Both the position numbers and the translations under genes were made by a program. The notes under the pieces are model-generated. The model was not told the origin of the DNA, searched no databases, and saw only the letters and a list, made by a program, of their open reading frames with translations. This document shows, piece after piece, positions 22,000 to 45,226 of a DNA stretch of 64,000 nt (the stretch's first letter is position 1; every line of letters starts with the position of its first letter). Location: the NCBI RefSeq assembly GCF_053078305.1, contig NZ_CP166879.1. One strand, written 5' to 3'.

Positions 22000-24381
22000 A
22001 TGGATACGCCAGACGAAAAGGAACGCATTACATTTCCGCAAGTATCACGACGTAGTTTTTTACAAGCGACTTCCGCGCTTATCACTTTGCCTTTTATTTC
22101 TTATACCGTAAAGGCGCAATCCCCAGATGCGTCGCCAGAAGTTACAGCTCCAGTAGCTGATAAAGTCGTGCCCACCTGTAGCACATTTGACTGCGGTGGT
22201 AAGTGCGATATTCGGGCGCATATGCGCGACGGTGTGGTGACGCAAATTACCACGCTTCCCGATAACGAACTGGATCCACAAATGCCGATTATGCGCGCCT
22301 GTGTTCGTGGTTGCGGCTATCGTAAATTTGTTTATCATCCAGACCGCCTCAAATATCCGATGAAACGGGTCGGTAAACGGGGCGAGGGGAAATTTGAGCG
22401 TATTTCATGGGATGAGGCGACGACCTTAATTGCCGATAACCTGAAAAGGATCACGCAACAATATGGCCCGGCTTCACGTTATGTCCATGTCGGGACGGCT
22501 GTTTCTGGTGGAACATTTTCTGGTGATGCGATGGCGCGTCGGCTGTTAAATTTAACCGGTGGTTATCTTGAATATTATCACTCAGTTAGTCTGGGTAATA
22601 CTGCGGCGGCAACGCCTTACACGTATGGCGTGGCGGCCAGCGGTAACTCGATGGATACTCTTCTGGATACCAAACTGGTGATCCTCTGGGGGCATAACCC
22701 AACGGAAACCATCTTCGGTCACACCAATTACTTTTTTCAAAAAATGAAGCAAAACGGTACGCGTTTTATCGTGGTAGATCCGCGTTATTCCGACACTGTA
22801 TCTTCGCTTGCCGATCAGTGGATCCCGCTGCTGCCGACCACGGACAATGCGTTGATGGACGCGATGATGTACGTCATTATCAGCGAAAATCTCCACAATA
22901 AGACATTTATCGACACATATACTCTCGGTTTTGATGAAAACTCTATGCCAGAAGGCGTACCAGCCAACGAATCGTTGGTTGCCTACCTTTTTGGCGCAAA
23001 AGATGGGATACACAAAACGCCGGAATGGGCAGAAAAAATTACCCACGTTCCAGCACAATCCATTCGTCAACTGGCACGCGATTACGCCACTACAAAACCC
23101 GCAGCGTTGATTCAGGGATGGGGGCCACAGCGACATATTTGCGGCGAACGCACCGCCCGAGGTTCAACTTTACTGGCCTCGATTACCGGTAACGTCGGCA
23201 TCAAAGGTGGCTGGGCGGCAGGTTACGGCGGTAGTTCTAATCGTAAATTCTGCGTTGGACCAGATATGCCAGAAAATCCGGTACAAGCGAAAATCTCGAT
23301 TATGAACTGGATGCAGGCGGCGGATGATGCTTCTAAAGTTACGCCGCAAGATGGGCTTAAAGGTGTCGATAAACTCGACAGTAATATCCGCCTGCTGTTC
23401 TCACTGGCAGGTAATTATCTGGCGAACCAGAACCCGGACGTCCACCAGGCCGCGAAGCTCCTTGAAGACGAATCTAAAATAGAATTCATCGTACTCAGCG
23501 ATCTGTTCATGACTCCGAGCGCGAAATATGCCGATGTGTTGCTGCCGGAAACCAGCTTTATGGAACGCTGGAATATCGGCGAAACATGGGGAACTGCGAG
23601 CTATCTTATTCTGTCAGAAAAACTGATTGAGCCGGATTTTGAACGTCGCACCGATTATGACTGGTTGCGTGACGTGGCGAAAAAACTGGGTGTCGAAGCC
23701 GAGTTCAGTCAAGGACGTGATGAGAAGCAATGGGTAGAGCATATCTGGGAGCAAACTCGTCTGGCGATGCCGGATGAAAATTTGCCGGACTTCGCGACCC
23801 TGCAAAAAACACGTCGACATCTTTTTAAAAGTGCGCCGCACATCGCTTTCGAAGCAAATATTCGCGATCCGCAGAATAATCCTTTCCCGACGCCTTCCGG
23901 CAAAATTGAGATCTTCTCTAAGCGTCTTTTTGATATGCAAGATCCAGAAATTCCCGCGCTTTCGCACTATGTCCCTGCATTTGAAGGGCCAGAAGATAAA
24001 CTGACGGCGAAATACCCGTTGCAGCTCATCACCTGGAAAGGGAAAAACCGTGCTAATTCCACCCAGTATGCTAACCCGTGGCTGCAAGAAGTTCAGACGC
24101 AAAAACTCTGGCTGAATCCGCAAGATGCAAAACAGCGCGGGATTAGCGAAGGAGATAGCGTAAAAATTTATAACGATCGTGGTGTGAGCATTATCCCGGT
24201 GGAAATAACCCCCCGTATCATCCCTGGCGTAGTTGCTATGCAGGCGGGGGCATGGTGGCAACCGGATGCACAAGGTATCGATCGCGGAGGCTGTGCCAAT
24301 GTACTGAGTTCGACCCGCATTACGGCGCTGGCGAAAGGGAATTCGCATCAAACAATGCTGGTGGAGGTTGAGAAAGCATGA
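22000..24381 (+). CDS. molybdopterin (DMSO reductase family) oxidoreductase catalytic subunit with Tat signal
   Basis: 793 aa; SRRSFLQATSAL twin-arginine motif; N-terminal CxxCxxxC Fe-S motif (CSTFDCGGKC). Confidence 0.85.
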   Translation: MDTPDEKERITFPQVSRRSFLQATSALITLPFISYTVKAQSPDASPEVTAPVADKVVPTCSTFDCGGKCDIRAHMRDGVVTQITTLPDNELDPQMPIMRACVRGCGYRKFVYHPDRLKYPMKRVGKRGEGKFERISWDEATTLIADNLKRITQQYGPASRYVHVGTAVSGGTFSGDAMARRLLNLTGGYLEYYHSVSLGNTAAATPYTYGVAASGNSMDTLLDTKLVILWGHNPTETIFGHTNYFFQKMKQNGTRFIVVDPRYSDTVSSLADQWIPLLPTTDNALMDAMMYVIISENLHNKTFIDTYTLGFDENSMPEGVPANESLVAYLFGAKDGIHKTPEWAEKITHVPAQSIRQLARDYATTKPAALIQGWGPQRHICGERTARGSTLLASITGNVGIKGGWAAGYGGSSNRKFCVGPDMPENPVQAKISIMNWMQAADDASKVTPQDGLKGVDKLDSNIRLLFSLAGNYLANQNPDVHQAAKLLEDESKIEFIVLSDLFMTPSAKYADVLLPETSFMERWNIGETWGTASYLILSEKLIEPDFERRTDYDWLRDVAKKLGVEAEFSQGRDEKQWVEHIWEQTRLAMPDENLPDFATLQKTRRHLFKSAPHIAFEANIRDPQNNPFPTPSGKIEIFSKRLFDMQDPEIPALSHYVPAFEGPEDKLTAKYPLQLITWKGKNRANSTQYANPWLQEVQTQKLWLNPQDAKQRGISEGDSVKIYNDRGVSIIPVEITPRIIPGVVAMQAGAWWQPDAQGIDRGGCANVLSSTRITALAKGNSHQTMLVEVEKA

Positions 24382-25007
24382 GCCAATTTAAAGAATTTGC
24401 ATCTGTCAGCGACAAACAATTAGGGTTCTTTATTGACTCTTCGCGTTGTTCTGGCTGTAAAGCGTGTCAGGTGGCCTGTAAAGACAAAAACAACCTTGAG
24501 GTTGGGCGACGTTTTCGCCGCGTGTATGAAGTGAACGGCGGTGGCTTCATCGCCACTGGAGAGGGCGGTGTGAGTCATAATGTCTTTGCTTATACCCTTT
24601 CTGTTTCCTGTAACCATTGCGCGGATCCGATCTGTACCAAAAATTGCCCGACGATGGCGATGCATAAGCGTCCCGGAGACGGCATTGTGCGCGTGAATAC
24701 TGATAAGTGCGTCGGTTGCGGTTACTGCGCCTGGTCCTGTCCTTACGGCGCACCACAAATGAATGAGCAGACCGGGCAGATGTCGAAATGCGATTTCTGT
24801 ATTGATCTGCAAGCTAAAGGAGAACAACCCATTTGCGTGGCAACGTGCCCGTTGGGGGCGATTAAGTTCGGCCCTATTGATGAGTTGCGTGAAAAGTATG
24901 GCGATGTCAGTGATGTGAAAGGTTTACCTGATTCGTCGATTACGCAGCCAAATCTGGTGATTAAACCGCATCAGGGCGCGGAAAAGGAGGCGTCACATCA
25001 TGCATGA
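24378..25007 (+). CDS. 4Fe-4S ferredoxin-type electron transfer subunit (DmsB-like)
   Basis: 209 aa with multiple CxxCxxCxxxCP motifs; ATGA overlap with upstream gene. Confidence 0.85.
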   Translation: MSQFKEFASVSDKQLGFFIDSSRCSGCKACQVACKDKNNLEVGRRFRRVYEVNGGGFIATGEGGVSHNVFAYTLSVSCNHCADPICTKNCPTMAMHKRPGDGIVRVNTDKCVGCGYCAWSCPYGAPQMNEQTGQMSKCDFCIDLQAKGEQPICVATCPLGAIKFGPIDELREKYGDVSDVKGLPDSSITQPNLVIKPHQGAEKEASHHA

Positions 25008-25821
25008 ATTACCGTTAATGGCTTTTACGCTGTTGTTACAGGCATCGGTCGGTATGACGTTGTGGCTGGCGTTTCTTCATCGTCATATTTTAATCACCTC
25101 CAGTGCCCGCCCGGTTATGCGACCGCCATTACTGTTGGCTTTTTTGGCCGGGGCAGTAGGGTTACTGATTTCTACCTTACACCTGGGTTATCCACTTAAT
25201 GCGATGCATGCGCTAAGTCACTTTTCCAGTTCATGGCTGAGTCGGGAAATTATCTTTGGTGCGCTGTATCTGGCGCTATTGGGTTTAACCACATTACTGG
25301 TCATGTTACACAAAGGCGGCTGGCAACTCCTTCTTATGCTAGCGGCAGTGGTCGGAATTGTTGATGTTTTCTGCATGGCGCAAGTTTACATCCATACGTC
25401 GATTATCACCTGGCAGCATTACAACACGCTGATTATGTTCTTAGGTACAGTGGGAATTCTCGGTTCAGCGCTGGTAGCAGTGTTTCGTATTAGCGGAATT
25501 TTGCCGCAGATTGATGCCCTGCGTAATGGATGCGTGTTGGTGATCGCTCTCCTGGTTCTGTTGCGCTTGTTGGTTCAGCCGTTGTGGGTAGGGGATTTAA
25601 CGGCGAATGCGATGCAGATAGCTACACTGCCACATGCGCCATTAGCGATGCTGGGACAGTTAAAACCCATACTGACACTAAGCTGGGGAATTTCCGTCAT
25701 TGGGATGATGTTCTTTGCTGTCGGTGGTTGTAAAAAGAATATCCCTGCGGCGTTATTCGGTAGCGTACTGCTAGTGGGCAGTGAAGTTATGCTGCGTTTT
25801 GTCTTTTTTAGTATCGGCTAA
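25000..25821 (+). CDS. integral membrane anchor subunit (DmsC-like)
   Basis: 273 aa, highly hydrophobic multi-TM; 8-bp overlap with upstream gene. Confidence 0.75.
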   Translation: MHELPLMAFTLLLQASVGMTLWLAFLHRHILITSSARPVMRPPLLLAFLAGAVGLLISTLHLGYPLNAMHALSHFSSSWLSREIIFGALYLALLGLTTLLVMLHKGGWQLLLMLAAVVGIVDVFCMAQVYIHTSIITWQHYNTLIMFLGTVGILGSALVAVFRISGILPQIDALRNGCVLVIALLVLLRLLVQPLWVGDLTANAMQIATLPHAPLAMLGQLKPILTLSWGISVIGMMFFAVGGCKKNIPAALFGSVLLVGSEVMLRFVFFSIG

Positions 25822-26675
25822 TGTTAAGTCATAACATAACGATTGGCGCGGAATGCGCGCGCCAACGCTTTCGTTTTGCAACATGTCATGCCTGTGTCGA
25901 GGCTTGCCCGGCACAGGCGCTAACGCTGACAGAAGAGGGCATAGCGGTCGACGCGGAACAATGTATTGAGTGTGCGGTTTGCCAGTTTATTTGTCCGCAA
26001 GAGGCTATTCGTGGCGTTAATTCCCCTTTACGTTATTTTCGCAATCACACCCTGGTCGCACCTTTCACCACTATTGCGCCGACGCTGGAAGAACTTTTGC
26101 TATGGCATAAAGAGCAGGGGATCACAGCGATCGCGATTGATCTGAGTCAGGCGAAGGCATGGGAGCGCGCATTATTGCTGTTAAACGAACGCTTACGGCA
26201 ATATGGCGAGGAAGGCTGGTCTGTGGTATCTCCACATACCAGTGAGGTGAATGTTTCCCGGCGTCGTTTGTTCCATGTGCAGCGTGCGGATGTTCAGATG
26301 ACACAAATACAACCAGGATTACGTCGGTTACATTATTTATGGCCCCAGATTAGTGATGCTCGCCCGATGATGGATCCTCAAAAGTGTCAGCTTTGCGGTG
26401 CATGCTGGCGGGCCTGCGAGCAACAGGTCTTTTCGCTTAACGAAGGCCATTTACAAATCAATGATGCCTTGTGTAACGGATGCCAAAATTGTATTGCTGT
26501 TTGTTTTCATCAGGCAATGACCGTTGAATTGACGATTCTACCGGCAAAAATTGTGAATCTTCATGCTAATCGCAAAGTCTGTAAAACCTGTCAAAAATCC
26601 TTTCTTACTTTTCAGCAAAATGCGCAAAATTGTCTTTATTGCCAACGTCATCGCTATGGGATGAGAGCACCATAA
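25821..26675 (+). CDS. cysteine-rich ferredoxin-like protein, fourth gene of the operon
   Basis: 284 aa; motifs CHACVEACP, CIECAVCQFICP, CQLCGACWRAC, CNGCQNCIAVC; TAATG stop/start overlap. Confidence 0.7.
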   Translation: MLSHNITIGAECARQRFRFATCHACVEACPAQALTLTEEGIAVDAEQCIECAVCQFICPQEAIRGVNSPLRYFRNHTLVAPFTTIAPTLEELLLWHKEQGITAIAIDLSQAKAWERALLLLNERLRQYGEEGWSVVSPHTSEVNVSRRRLFHVQRADVQMTQIQPGLRRLHYLWPQISDARPMMDPQKCQLCGACWRACEQQVFSLNEGHLQINDALCNGCQNCIAVCFHQAMTVELTILPAKIVNLHANRKVCKTCQKSFLTFQQNAQNCLYCQRHRYGMRAP

Positions 26676-39143: not shown

Positions 39144-40721
39144 ATGACGGAAAACATTCATAAGCATCGCATCCTCATTCTGGACTTCGGTTCTCAGTAC
39201 ACTCAACTGGTTGCGCGCCGCGTGCGTGAGCTGGGTGTTTACTGCGAACTGTGGGCGTGGGATGTGACAGAAGCACAAATTCGTGACTTCAATCCAAGCG
39301 GCATTATTCTTTCCGGCGGCCCGGAAAGTACTACTGAAGAAAACAGTCCGCGTGCGCCGCAGTATGTCTTTGAAGCAGGCGTACCGGTATTCGGCGTTTG
39401 CTATGGCATGCAGACCATGGCAATGCAGTTGGGCGGTCACGTTGAAGCCTCTAACGAACGTGAATTTGGCTACGCGCAGGTTGAAGTCGTAAACGACAGC
39501 GCACTGGTTCGCGGTATCGAAGATGCGCTGACCGCAGACGGTAAACCGCTGCTCGATGTCTGGATGAGCCACGGCGATAAAGTTACCGCTATCCCGTCCG
39601 ACTTCGTCACCGTAGCCAGCACCGAAAGCTGCCCGTTTGCCATTATGGCTAACGAAGAAAAACGCTTCTATGGCGTACAGTTCCACCCGGAAGTGACTCA
39701 CACCCGCCAGGGTATGCGCATGCTGGAGCGTTTTGTGCGTGATATCTGCCAGTGTGAAGCCCTGTGGACGCCAGCGAAAATTATCGACGATGCTGTAGCT
39801 CGCATCCGCGAGCAGGTAGGCGACGATAAAGTCATCCTCGGCCTCTCTGGTGGTGTGGATTCCTCCGTAACCGCAATGCTGCTGCACCGCGCTATCGGTA
39901 AAAACCTGACTTGCGTATTCGTCGACAACGGCCTGCTGCGTCTCAACGAAGCAGAGCAGGTTCTGGATATGTTTGGCGATCACTTTGGTCTTAACATTGT
40001 TCACGTACCGGCAGAAGATCGCTTCCTGTCAGCGCTGGCTGGCGAAAACGATCCGGAAGCAAAACGTAAAATCATCGGTCGCGTTTTCGTTGAAGTATTC
40101 GATGAAGAAGCGCTGAAACTGGAAGACGTGAAGTGGCTGGCACAGGGCACCATCTACCCTGACGTTATCGAATCTGCGGCGTCTGCAACCGGTAAAGCAC
40201 ACGTCATCAAATCTCACCACAACGTGGGCGGCCTGCCGAAAGAGATGAAGATGGGCCTGGTTGAACCGCTGAAAGAGCTGTTCAAAGACGAAGTGCGTAA
40301 GATTGGTCTGGAGCTGGGTCTACCGTACGACATGCTGTACCGTCACCCGTTCCCGGGACCAGGCCTTGGCGTTCGTGTTCTGGGTGAAGTGAAGAAAGAG
40401 TACTGTGACCTGCTGCGCCGTGCTGACGCCATCTTCATTGAAGAACTGCGTAAAGCGGATCTGTACGACAAAGTCAGCCAGGCGTTCACCGTCTTCCTGC
40501 CAGTACGTTCCGTTGGCGTAATGGGCGATGGTCGTAAGTATGACTGGGTTGTCTCTCTGCGTGCTGTCGAAACCATCGACTTTATGACCGCACACTGGGC
40601 GCATCTGCCGTACGATTTCCTCGGTCGCGTTTCCAACCGCATTATCAATGAAGTGAACGGTATTTCCCGCGTGGTGTATGACATCAGCGGCAAGCCGCCA
40701 GCTACCATTGAGTGGGAGTGA
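39144..40721 (+). CDS. guaA: GMP synthase (glutamine-hydrolysing) GuaA
   Basis: 525-aa ORF, GATase and ATP-PPase (SGGVDSSV) motifs. Confidence 0.95.
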
Positions 40722-40760
40722 GGCTATTATTTAAACTATTGTTTTATTTGATTTAGTGAG

Positions 40761-40800
40761 TGCCATTGATGATATTGACTGCATTATCAATGGCATTTTT
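40761..40800 (+). terminator. guaA terminator
   Basis: imperfect stem TGCCATTGATGAT / ATTATCAATGGCA followed by ATTTTT. Confidence 0.5.
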
Positions 40801-41105
40801 CATGGTATAAGGCCGACGCTGAATCGAAGATATAGCAAATACCATGTGACTGTATCAGCAAATGCCATGGTATCGACAACCGGGGGCATTGCAGCGCTGT
40901 GCTGATGCCATCGATGCCCGCTTTTAGTCAGAACACTCTCTCGACCCAAGCCTCCAGATCCTTAAATATGCGCCAGAGGAGCACCTCGTGATCGAAATTA
41001 TGAACAAGACAGCCGCCGCTCGGAATCGAAGTCTCCATATGGGTGAATAAGGTTTGCGGAAAACACGCTGAGAAAATAGAAAAGCGTCAATGAAGGGACA
41101 TAGCA

Positions 41106-42386
41106 ATGGCGATTAACGGAGTGGACGGTGTTAGCGCAGTCACCGTGGATGAACTACTCAAGCAAGGCCTTCGGATACCGAACTATCAACGCCCATACAG
41201 TTGGGAAGTATCGACCGCTCTACAACTGGTGGATGATCTCAGCGAAGCTCTTCGAGATACCGAAAGAAAAGATATTCCCTATGTTTTGGGTGCAATCATT
41301 CTTCACGATGATGGTGAGTATCTCAATGTAGTCGACGGACAGCAACGTCTGCTGACTTTGCGAATGATTCTTGCGGCCTTAGATCCGATAAATCACCAAA
41401 TTTCGGTGTCTGGTAACAGAGAAACCTCTGTCTCCCTGGTTTGGATAGAGCTTCAAAGGCGCCTGTCGCAGTTGGAAGATAAAAAAGAATTTTTGGATTT
41501 TATCTGTCACAAATGTCAGTTGGTGCGTATTGTGACGGACGATATTGATGAGGCATTCCGTGTCTTTGATTCCCAGAACTATCGCGGCAAACCGCTTGCC
41601 CCTCATGACTTGCTCAAAGCACACCACCTGCGCGAAATGCACGATGAGTCCGCTGCTATGAAAGTGGCTGTCGTTGAGGCTTGGGAAGCCGTAAATGATG
41701 AGGATCTGGACAGGCTTTTTTCTACTTTTTTATACCGGATATCCAAGTGGTCACGAGGAGAAAGCTCGCTCGAATTTGCTATTCGGGACATCGGTATGTT
41801 CAAGGGAATTTCATCACGATCCCACAGATCATTTTCGCCAAATCTGCGATATCACCTTGCAGCACAAGCCGCTATGCCACTTCTAAGTGCATGGGCGGTG
41901 TCCTCGACACATGATGCTCGAAATGCCGGGCGCAGCCGCTTTCAGCTTGATGCCCCGATAATCGCTGGGCGCTCATTTTTCGAGATGGTGGCATTCATGC
42001 TTGACGAATTGAAGATACTGGAAAAAGAGGTTATCGACAAAGGTTTCAAAAACTTTGGCCCATCTCAAAGTCGCTACCGCTACGTGTACGAATTGTTCAT
42101 TGCCGCTCTGCTTTGCTATACAAACAAGTTTGGCGATGAAGATGTGGATGAAGTGCGAAATAGGTTATTCGCATGGGCATATGCCTTGCGGGTCGAGTTA
42201 CTTCGTGTGCAATTTGTATCTGCTGACAACCGAGCTCGAGGTAAAAACGATGCAAATAAATCGCCTTTTGTTTTGCTACGCAACGCGATGACTGGAAGTG
42301 TTGTCCGCAAACTTCCAATAGCAAGTCAGCCATACAACGATAACCACGAAAAGGAACTCATTGCTTTTATCAAGGGGCTGCAATGA
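41106..42386 (+). CDS. DUF262-like (ParB/Srx-fold, GmrS-like) protein without nuclease domain; first gene of accessory two-gene cassette
   Basis: 426 aa; N-terminal IPNYQRPYSW and DGQQRL motifs at ~aa 25-80, later FDSQNYRGKPL motif; SD AAGGGA upstream; stop overlaps next start. Confidence 0.8.
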   Translation: MAINGVDGVSAVTVDELLKQGLRIPNYQRPYSWEVSTALQLVDDLSEALRDTERKDIPYVLGAIILHDDGEYLNVVDGQQRLLTLRMILAALDPINHQISVSGNRETSVSLVWIELQRRLSQLEDKKEFLDFICHKCQLVRIVTDDIDEAFRVFDSQNYRGKPLAPHDLLKAHHLREMHDESAAMKVAVVEAWEAVNDEDLDRLFSTFLYRISKWSRGESSLEFAIRDIGMFKGISSRSHRSFSPNLRYHLAAQAAMPLLSAWAVSSTHDARNAGRSRFQLDAPIIAGRSFFEMVAFMLDELKILEKEVIDKGFKNFGPSQSRYRYVYELFIAALLCYTNKFGDEDVDEVRNRLFAWAYALRVELLRVQFVSADNRARGKNDANKSPFVLLRNAMTGSVVRKLPIASQPYNDNHEKELIAFIKGLQ

Positions 42387-44335
42387 GCAAGAAGGAGTTG
42401 AAACCCGAACTGCTAACAGTAGGCAAGCTATTCACGGACAATTATCTGATTCCTATTTATCAACGGAACTATGCTTGGCGGGCCGAACAGATTGAGCAAC
42501 TTATCAGCGATATTCAAGACTCGGTTGTTGGGGGCCAGGACGACTATTTTCTTGGAAACCTTGTTGTAATCAAGCGGGGTAGAGAGGACGAGTTCGAGGT
42601 CATAGATGGACAACAACGACTTACAACCCTCTATCTGCTTCTGACCTTCCTGGAGCAAGACGGTGAGGGTGGGAAGCCGTCGATTGGCCATGCAGGCCAC
42701 TTGCAATATGAGTCGCGTGCACGGGCAACGGAAGCCCTGCGGCGAGTAGCACAGGAGGCGGCTAAGGGGCACGTCCGACCGCAGGGCTCCACGAGTAATG
42801 CAGATGCTGGCATCCATGAAGGCTACAGCATCATCAATCAGTTCTTCAAACAAAATGAAACCCTTAATTGCTCACGCGAAAAATTCTCCGATTTCTTGCT
42901 AACGAAGGTTACTGTCGTCCGTGCCTCGCTGCCACCCAATACAGATCTCAATCGCTACTTCGAGATCATGAACACTCGTGGGCAGCAACTCAAGCAGGTT
43001 GATATTGTTAAGGCTCGCCTGATGAGCAAGCTGCCCAATCAATATGAACGCGAATGCTTCGCCTGGGTTTGGGATGCCTGTGCTGAGATGGATTCTTATG
43101 TCCAGATGTCTCTGACCCGTGGTGACACCAGTTTGCGAAACAAAGTATTTGGCGATGAATGGTCCTGGCTGGAGGTGACCAGCTTCGCGTCGTTAATGGA
43201 AAGTCGTCCGCAATCCGGCATCAATTCTTCAAGGCAATCCTCCGAAGGGGTATCGTTGTCCTTGGATGAGGCGTTGTCAAAATACGCTAAAGAGATCGAG
43301 TCAAATTCCACTGAAGACGAGGGCAACGAGCGGTTTCGTTCGACTATTGAGTTTCCGGCCTTTCTGCTACACGTTCTAAGAATTATGAAAGGCGATGAGG
43401 TCGAAGACGAAGGCCAGCTTGACGACAAACGCCTCATCAAGTCATTTGACGACGCTGTAAATAATGTACCCGATGCTAAAGCCGATTGGGTGCGTAACTT
43501 TACATTCATGCTCCTCAAGTGCCGCAACCTCTTCGATGGCTTCATTTTGAAGCGTCAATTCACGGCGAACATCGGTGACGATGGCGATTGGTCTCTCCAG
43601 CGATTGAAGAAAGGCGGCGCGGACAAGAAGCCAACCCCGACGTATATCCATGTTTTCTCGGCCAGCAATGGAAACTTAGAGGAGGACGGCGGTGCTGACC
43701 CACATACCCGAGATGTATTGCTGCTTCAGTCCATGCTTCGGATAACCTACACTTCTCCGCGAACGATGCACTGGATTACCAAAGTTCTTCGCTGGCTATC
43801 CGTCAAAGCCCCTCAAGACGCGAAACATGCGGATCTTGCCGATTTGTTGAAGGGGTATGCCCGCAGCAAGGTCAAAGAGACATTCCCCTTTGAGGAAGAT
43901 CAGCAACCACAAGGGTTTGGTATCAGCCGCATCGTCTTTTCGTATCTCGACTATCTTCTGTTGAGCGATTCCTCAAAACGAGATTTCAAATTTCAGTTCA
44001 GAACTTCCATTGAGCACTTTTATCCACAGCATCCGGACAAAGAACAGTCGGGCGCGGTTGTTTCAGGTTCTAGCCTTAACCTGCTTGGCAACCTTGCGCT
44101 CGTAAGCGTCAGCGCGAACTCAAAATTCAGCAATAGCCTTCCCAGAGCGAAGGCCGAAAACTTCAAGGATACGATTGAACTTCAAAGTCCCAAGCTCAAG
44201 AGAATGGCGGAAATCACTCGAAATACAAGCTGGGACGATCAGCAGATAACAGCTCATCATGAAGAGATGGTGACATTGCTTCGTGATGATGTAAGTCTGG
44301 TGGAGGCAAGCGGAAGATCCTACCCGGGGCGTTGA
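42383..44335 (+). CDS. GmrSD/SspE-like protein: N-terminal DUF262-like domain fused to C-terminal DUF1524-like His-Me finger nuclease domain (putative modification-dependent or defence endonuclease)
   Basis: 650 aa; IPIYQRNYAW and DGQQRLTTL motifs; FEIMNTRGQQL; C-terminal SIEHFYPQHP ... GNLALVSVSANSKFSN. Confidence 0.8.
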   Translation: MSKKELKPELLTVGKLFTDNYLIPIYQRNYAWRAEQIEQLISDIQDSVVGGQDDYFLGNLVVIKRGREDEFEVIDGQQRLTTLYLLLTFLEQDGEGGKPSIGHAGHLQYESRARATEALRRVAQEAAKGHVRPQGSTSNADAGIHEGYSIINQFFKQNETLNCSREKFSDFLLTKVTVVRASLPPNTDLNRYFEIMNTRGQQLKQVDIVKARLMSKLPNQYERECFAWVWDACAEMDSYVQMSLTRGDTSLRNKVFGDEWSWLEVTSFASLMESRPQSGINSSRQSSEGVSLSLDEALSKYAKEIESNSTEDEGNERFRSTIEFPAFLLHVLRIMKGDEVEDEGQLDDKRLIKSFDDAVNNVPDAKADWVRNFTFMLLKCRNLFDGFILKRQFTANIGDDGDWSLQRLKKGGADKKPTPTYIHVFSASNGNLEEDGGADPHTRDVLLLQSMLRITYTSPRTMHWITKVLRWLSVKAPQDAKHADLADLLKGYARSKVKETFPFEEDQQPQGFGISRIVFSYLDYLLLSDSSKRDFKFQFRTSIEHFYPQHPDKEQSGAVVSGSSLNLLGNLALVSVSANSKFSNSLPRAKAENFKDTIELQSPKLKRMAEITRNTSWDDQQITAHHEEMVTLLRDDVSLVEASGRSYPGR

Positions 44336-44632
44336 CTTCTTTGAATAACCGCTTTTGGACGAATGTCCCTTGTGGAGTGCAAGTTGTCAGTTTAAAAGTG
44401 TTTTGCGTCGGGCGACACGATCAGTACAGCTCCCAGGTTTTTTTACCATGGTATTTTGTGTGGTATCGACATGCAAAGATAATGCTATTTTGTTGATTTT
44501 ATAGTGTTTTAAGGCGGCATTGATCATCGAGTGGGAATAAACCCTGTACATATTGCTGAAGTTTTCTTTTCGGATAAAACTTCAGCAGATTTTCACAGCA
44601 AACCCCTCTTATCTCTGGAGGTTTTTTTTACG

Positions 44633-44686: not shown

Positions 44687-45226
44687 TTAATTAAACCAAC
44701 CGTCCGATTTATTCTCTTCTGCTTTACCCACGCTTTTCATCAAATCGCGACCGCCTTCTGTCACATTTCTGTTAGCGTCAGCTTCAGATTGCACGACATC
44801 AGTTTGCGCGGCTTTGTGCTTCAGCTCCTGGTCGATAAACTCGTTCTCTCGCTTAACGCGGGCTTCTTCTTTCGCCAGCGCCAGCTTTTGTTTCTGAATC
44901 TCTAAGCTGCGCAGCTCATCTTCATAACTTTGATCGCGTTTTTTATCCGCGGTGGCTTCGGCGTCCAGTTTATCCTGACGAGCTTTCTTATCCGCTGCTG
45001 CTGCCGCCGCTCTTTTGTTAGCGGCGGCCTGGGCATTTGCGCGACGTTGCTTCTCTTGCTGGATTTCCCTGTTGCGCTCCGCGACCCATTCGTCATGCTG
45101 CCTTTGCTCTTCATTTTTACCTTGCTGTTCCGCTTCTGCGACAGCAGAGAGTTGATCCTGCAATGATGAGGCGATAGCCGGATAGCTTAAGGAGACCAAG
45201 ATGGCGCAAAGAAAAACTTTCTTCAT
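44687..45226 (-). CDS. yfgI: secreted coiled-coil protein YfgI
   Basis: 179-aa ORF with signal peptide and charged coiled-coil; synteny. Confidence 0.8.
   Translation of the reverse strand: MKKVFLCAILVSLSYPAIASSLQDQLSAVAEAEQQGKNEEQRQHDEWVAERNREIQQEKQRRANAQAAANKRAAAAAADKKARQDKLDAEATADKKRDQSYEDELRSLEIQKQKLALAKEEARVKRENEFIDQELKHKAAQTDVVQSEADANRNVTEGGRDLMKSVGKAEENKSDGWFN

Follow-up and report, generated by a model that had tools for sequence, protein, structure and literature searches.

Why should a gene for a DUF262 protein that lacks a nuclease lie directly in front of a gene for a GmrSD enzyme that has one? The question is raised by two neighboring genes, here called A and B, in a window of 64,000 nucleotides (the whole stretch analysed, from contig NZ_CP166879.1 of RefSeq assembly GCF_053078305.1) of an E. 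coli chromosome. In RefSeq, neither has a more specific name than "DUF262 domain-containing protein". The answer argued below is that A and B are very probably the two subunits of a modification-dependent type IV restriction enzyme of the TgvAB (or GmrS1/GmrSD2) type, carried on a 3.8-kb cassette that is inserted at the 3' end of guaA. The argument starts from these features:

41106..42386, + strand: gene A, the probable TgvA/GmrS1-type subunit; a 426-aa ORF with an ATG start, DUF262 at residues 19-175 and the all-helical DUF7834 at 186-414
42383..44335, + strand: gene B, the probable TgvB/GmrSD2-type subunit; a 650-aa ORF in which a long helical stretch separates DUF262 (residues 14-214) from a DUF1524 His-Me nuclease (521-631)
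42383..42386, + strand: the 4-bp overlap ATGA, stop of A and start of B, with AAGGGG a few bases upstream of the ATG

Two proteins with one domain in common

The original prediction gave gene A an ORF of 426 aa, and the C-terminal sequence that it quoted is the real translation; RefSeq annotates the ORF in other E. coli genomes as well. Pfam recognizes GmrSD_N at residues 19-175 (E 1.3e-27) and DUF7834 at 186-414 (E 5.6e-55) of A, and GmrSD_N at 14-214 (E 2.2e-33) and GmrSD_C at 521-631 (E 1.1e-13) of B. The DUF262 motif layout said to be common to both is there: QR (28-29), DGQQR (77-81), and FDSQN (154-158) in A, QR (27-28), DGQQR (75-79), and FEIMN (193-197) in B, that is, QR, DGQQR, and FxxxN in each. 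An alignment of the two N-terminal domains, suggested at the same time as a check on paralogy, bears it out, with 23% identity by BLASTP (E 1e-8) and a profile-profile probability of 99.6% (E 5e-24). The profile match stays within A 7-198 and B 4-235, and so the paralogy is confined to the DUF262 domain. A lies directly upstream of B and overlaps it, as had been claimed, and translation of the two genes is likely to be coupled.

The E-H...N...N site of a His-Me nuclease is found only in B, not in A. It consists of E544-H545 together with N570, N579, and N584, all invariant in the family alignment, and E544/H545 align with E582/H583 of GmrSD2 from ECOR17, the residues that were mutated in that enzyme (PMC12373910). 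Gene B encodes the whole of a GmrSD-type enzyme, its His-Me site intact. Gene A is something else. A Pfam scan of the full protein gave no match to GmrSD_C, the DUF1524 His-Me nuclease, and the AF2 model (pLDDT 88.3) has an alpha/beta DUF262 domain and then, from 183 to 425, a purely helical domain, with no beta-beta-alpha finger in the C-terminal half. A single-chain GmrSD consisting of gene A alone is thereby ruled out. The structural neighbors of A are SspE, DndI, and BrxU. The claim that A lacks an H-containing nuclease motif thus stands, while the notion that its last ~200 residues are featureless does not, since they make up a strongly conserved Pfam domain, DUF7834 (PF25202). In gene A, a ParB-like DUF262 NTPase/sensor domain, whose QR, DGQQR, and FxxxN motifs are all intact, is followed by the helical DUF7834.

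The paralogy of the N-terminal domains might lead one to suppose that A is a functionless neighbor of B, the decayed or broken copy of a single-chain GmrSD gene. When DUF7834 by itself was searched for in 1.84 billion representative proteins, 438 clusters (at 50% identity) came back, almost all of them 420-480 aa in length with the domain at the C-terminus, and it follows that A is not the fragment of a single-chain gene. A frameshifted remnant was the outcome that the original prediction had said would overturn it, and the stability of this architecture at ~420-480 aa across the 438 clusters speaks the other way. Moreover, an alignment of 65 sequences of the A family has 32 invariant columns and more than 100 nearly so, A and B diverge at equal rates, and B retains a complete DUF262 domain of its own. 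That A is debris is scarcely credible.

The neighborhood survey proposed at the outset was carried out on ten loci, Bordetella avium, Pseudoduganella, and metagenomic contigs included, with A homologues that are between 68% and 33% identical to A. In 10 of 10 the next gene downstream is of the B type, at a distance of -8 to +15 nt, so the pair is indeed met with elsewhere, and the flanking genes are unrelated from one locus to the next. Pairwise distances for A and B are correlated in a mirror-tree comparison with r = 0.98 over 30 pairs (24 of the 30 partners were assigned to each other only through equal-sized source contigs), against a maximum of 0.74 in 2000 trials with shuffled partners. 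Throughout the sampled loci, A and B are adjacent, co-diverging, and strictly co-inherited.

Two observations may be added on the distribution of A-type genes. By tblastn there is no copy of gene A in 50,697 phage records. Rare A-type subunits bear large N-terminal extensions, with a B-type gene still next to them: one of 1411 aa (L019 4001-10435) has a Pfam SACS domain and follows a DUF499 gene, a second (L018 1460-3508) has 682 aa, and the extension in one A homologue amounts to 970 residues.

Kinship with two published pairs and the role of A

Two pairs from the literature are the natural standards of comparison. TgvAB (VC1767/VC1766), from VPI-2 of V. cholerae, consists of TgvA, a DUF262-only protein, and TgvB, with DUF262 and DUF1524, encoded by ORFs that overlap by 8 bp (PMC11411939; 10.1101/2024.04.05.588314). 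The other is GmrS1/GmrSD2 of ECOR17 (GmrSD-ECOR17, CLS_003/004; PMC12373910). Sequences of the latter were taken from the supplementary alignments of PMC12373910, while TgvA and TgvB were compared through their first ~400 residues, as given in Table S5 of PMC11411939. By BLASTP over the full length, A is 31% identical to ECOR17 GmrS1 (E 2e-56) and B is 33% identical to GmrSD2 (E 4e-88). Within the first ~400 residues, A is 25% identical to TgvA over A 22-364, a region that spans both domains (E 4e-27), and B is 29% identical to TgvB (E 2e-36). Like pairs with like: the cross pairs A-TgvB and B-TgvA match over only ~70 N-terminal residues (E 1e-10). Both TgvA and ECOR17 GmrS1 scan as GmrSD_N plus DUF7834 (E 7e-38 and 1.4e-76), which marks DUF7834 as the domain characteristic of TgvA-type subunits. 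The features of the family are present at this locus: adjacent, co-oriented, overlapping genes with the nuclease-less gene first; a first protein with QR, DGQQR, FxxxN, and DUF7834 and without DUF1524; and a second with DUF262 and DUF1524 and with the His-Me H...N...N intact.

The pair can also be traced, under other names, in the tables of both groups. Table S5 of PMC11411939, which lists matches to the TgvAB model, includes near-identical orthologues of A-B:

AFJ46164/65: Shimwellia blattae
ARA75559/60: Pectobacterium brasiliense
AIX87315/16: K. pneumoniae plasmid

The RefSeq alleles in other E. coli genomes, WP_001625659 (A, 6 aa different) and WP_001625657 (B, 1 aa different), fall in CLS_017 and CLS_016, respectively, of Supplementary Dataset 6 of PMC12373910. 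Of the GmrSD systems in the 20 commonest enterobacterial clusters, that study counted three as two-gene systems, and it synthesized and tested representatives of all 15 GmrSD systems or groups, five of which were newly active (PMC12373910). I infer that CLS_016/017 is the third of the two-gene systems, because accession numbers are adjacent in the two clusters and because the plasmid genes WP_004182042/WP_000037308 are adjacent. The main text, Supplementary Information, Dataset 6, and source-data listing of PMC12373910 do not state the activity of CLS_016/017. Literature searches found no experiment on the pair A-B itself and nothing for DUF7834 or the four WP accessions.

The pairing is therefore real and already known, the E. 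coli copy of a two-protein restriction type described in 2024-2025. The original prediction had considered it the least described part of the locus, which is contradicted by the experimental descriptions of the architecture in those years and by the presence of the pair in two published supplementary tables. What is gained is in annotation: Pfam DUF7834 becomes linked to the TgvA/GmrS1 subunit, and therefore such pairs can be named as TgvAB-type type IV restriction systems.

The genetics of the two relatives tell much about what a protein like A may do. [quoted passage not shown] By itself TgvB shows no activity, even under pBAD expression (PMC11411939; 10.1101/2024.04.05.588314). Of the ECOR17 genes, neither protects alone, overexpression included, and the E582A/H583A mutant of GmrSD2 is dead (PMC12373910). 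Neither a structure nor a biochemical complex of TgvAB was found in the literature.

Why a complete GmrSD enzyme requires a second, nuclease-less DUF262 subunit is the question facing the field, to which A-B contributes one more diverged member of the family and no new handle. GmrSD enzymes, of which BrxU is an example, switch between the dimeric and the monomeric state as NTP is bound and hydrolyzed. I propose that A and B assemble, plausibly as a hetero-oligomer in which A would stand where a BrxU-like GmrSD dimer has its second protomer. The DUF262 domains of both proteins would bind and hydrolyze NTP and in this way gate the recognition of hypermodified phage DNA, the target most likely being the sugar-modified 5-hydroxymethylcytosine of T-even phages, and the His-Me domain of B would cut the modified DNA, A having no part in the cleavage. 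Judged by the homologues that have been studied, neither A nor B should work alone. It follows from this homologue-based model that A would be an obligate co-activator or co-sensor and not an inhibitor.

The original prediction had left the choice between a heteromeric sensor/effector, which agrees with the finding that neither homologous gene protects alone, and an immunity or regulator function. In the second case, A would be an antitoxin-like protein that restrains B, an autonomous and toxic GmrSD nuclease. A and B are adjacent and overlapping in the manner of toxin-antitoxin pairs, and GmrSD enzymes can be toxic if overexpressed (PMC12373910), both points in favor of this reading. The ECOR17 system behaves in the opposite fashion: overexpressed GmrSD2 alone gives no protection, and gross toxicity is reported only when GmrS1 and GmrSD2 are induced together (PMC12373910). 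This disfavors an antitoxin, and so does the inactivity of TgvB by itself. Furthermore, the NTPase motifs of A are invariant throughout the family alignments and the equivalent motif of TgvA is required for defense, which argues for an active enzymatic role. I judge it very improbable that A is there to restrain B.

A different view is that B is the whole enzyme and A a decoy or guard, absorbing or countering inhibitors injected by the phage (Ip proteins) and needed only against phages that carry them. Vizzarro et al. raised a decoy role for TgvA (PMC11411939), and T4 internal proteins do inhibit GmrSD variants specifically, Ip3 being the inhibitor of ECOR17 GmrS1/GmrSD2 (PMC12373910). The difficulty is that GmrS1 and TgvA are needed also against T2 and T6, phages without the cognate inhibitor Ip3. 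A requirement for the partner against phages that lack the known inhibitor disfavors a decoy, for which an intact and invariant NTPase site would in any case be superfluous. The idea is improbable, and a joint role for A and B in the recognition of modified DNA is preferred here.

A cassette at the end of guaA

The order of genes in this part of the window is xseA, guaB, guaA (39144-40721), A, B, yfgI (44687-45226, minus strand), yfgH, yfgG, pdeF. In K-12-like strains, the spacer between guaA and yfgI is only 92 bp. Here the homology to other E. coli ends at the guaA stop codon and resumes beside yfgI, and between them lies the 3.8-kb segment that contains the pair, with homology to a plasmid copy extending from 40707 to 44535. 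Its parts are as follows:

40710..40721, + strand: left cassette border, GAGTGGGAGTGA, with which the coding sequence of guaA ends; most E. coli genomes are homologous only up to 40721
40722..41105, + strand: non-coding leader of the cassette, 384 bp
~40758-40803: hairpin after the guaA stop and inside the cassette, an inverted repeat with a 16-bp stem, then UUUUU; fold -19.1 kcal/mol, z = -3.55
44529..44540, + strand: right cassette border, GAGTGGGAATAA, which repeats the 3' terminus of guaA in direct orientation; in several E. coli genomes the match goes no further than ~44538

The empty site in K-12-like strains reads GAGTGGGAATGA, and for this reason GAGTGGGAATAA looks like the original end of guaA, displaced to the far side of the cassette. 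GAGTGGG(A) occurs at both ends of the cassette, in the chromosomal copy and in the Klebsiella plasmid copy (96% identical) alike. No gene for an integrase, transposase, or other recombinase is present in the 3.8-kb cassette. The hairpin at 40758-40803 is probably a replacement terminator for guaA. By its position, the promoter of A-B should lie between that hairpin and 41105; a promoter scan found no sigma-70-like promoter on the + strand upstream of A.

Some further features of the surroundings deserve record. A terminator-like hairpin at 44605-44621, now downstream of B, resembles by eye the hairpin in the guaA-yfgI spacer of K-12. The yfgI allele beside the cassette (44687-45226) is ~90-93% identical to that of most E. 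coli, the end of guaA 97-99%. Elsewhere in the window, at 22000-26675, there are four co-oriented ORFs (793, 209, 273, and 284 aa) of lower G+C (~47-50%). A prophage with a tyrosine integrase lies beside guaA in E. coli ETEC4077 (L013 6515-12258); its junction and flanks are unrelated to those of the cassette. That a prophage occupies the spacer in some strains instead marks the guaA-yfgI spacer as a general insertion hotspot.

The pair is found in 81 of 5426 complete E. coli genomes and, at ~96% identity, on 468 PLSDB plasmids, 464 of them from Klebsiella and 394 predicted to be conjugative. On one such plasmid (locus L014, IncFIB/IncFII), it is flanked by sopAB/IS3 and umuDC, and an antirestriction gene is a few kb away. 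Being so common on conjugative plasmids of Klebsiella, the pair may be of consequence where T4-like phages are used in phage therapy. I put forward, quite tentatively and as something that will more probably prove wrong, the idea that CLS_016/017 could differ from TgvAB and GmrSD-ECOR17 in substrate range or inhibitor profile and may spread, as a recombinase-less 3.8-kb cassette with GAGTGGG repeats, between large conjugative Klebsiella plasmids and the 3' end of guaA in E. coli. If true, CLS_016/017 would be a plasmid-disseminated type IV restriction module.

Comparison with known systems

There is no dedicated model for the pair in PADLOC 2.0 or NCBIfam, and NCBIfam has no match for either protein. 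The best PADLOC matches (A, E 1e-28; B, E 2e-37) are to HEC-06, Orf5, and SspE, and they were rejected because they cover mainly the N-terminal ~90 residues of models of ~560 aa. In the case of HEC-06, the best-scoring stretch is ~14-101 in a profile of 558 aa; HEC-06 has been described as a system that acts by itself (PMC11411939), and the system here comprises two genes. Eco94GmrSD, GmrSD-CT596, BrxU, SspE, and DndI are all single-polypeptide enzymes, whereas gene A has no His-Me domain.

GrwAB, from V. cholerae of the WASA lineage, is a GmrSD-like type IV system that likewise consists of two proteins, depends on the DUF262 domains of both, and restricts 7-deazaguanine DNA as well (PMC12137116). 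It differs from A-B in that the nuclease subunit comes first and in that GrwB has a long multi-domain C-terminus, distinct from TgvA according to its authors (PMC12137116). With the opposite gene order and with a single helical domain of 240 aa in A, the pair is set apart from GrwAB as the latter has been described.

What GrwAB does supply is an example of another substrate, and since identity to the characterized systems is only 25-35%, the target specificity of A-B may differ from theirs. The pair would then be a TgvAB-type enzyme directed at, for example, another hypermodified base or plasmid DNA. The low identity to both TgvAB and the ECOR17 pair is in keeping with this, as is the variation in specificity that GrwAB shows to exist among two-gene GmrSD systems, and residence on 468 plasmids, many predicted to be conjugative, would fit as well. 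Nothing speaks directly against such a substrate, but the default expectation from three characterized relatives is sugar-modified hmC. In the family as defined, restriction depends on a modification of the DNA, glucosyl- or arabinosyl-5hmC. I regard a different substrate as rather unlikely and take modified hmC as the expected target of A-B.

The ECOR17 pair resembles A-B in architecture, in species (E. coli), and in the aligned catalytic E-H, and alleles of both were clustered in the same paper; it is, as CLS_003/004, a different cluster pair from A-B (CLS_017/CLS_016). The resemblance to TgvAB lies in a DUF262-only gene followed by one with DUF262 and DUF1524, in overlapping ORFs, and in a first protein that is likewise GmrSD_N plus DUF7834. 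The differences are that identity is 25-29%, that the overlap is 4 bp in A-B and 8 bp in tgvAB, and that A-B does not lie inside a type I R-M operon. One relative (L004-L006 1-9266), with an A protein 58% identical, does occur directly after hsdM, hsdS, and an AAA_15 ATPase gene, a type I R-M context like that of tgvAB in V. cholerae.
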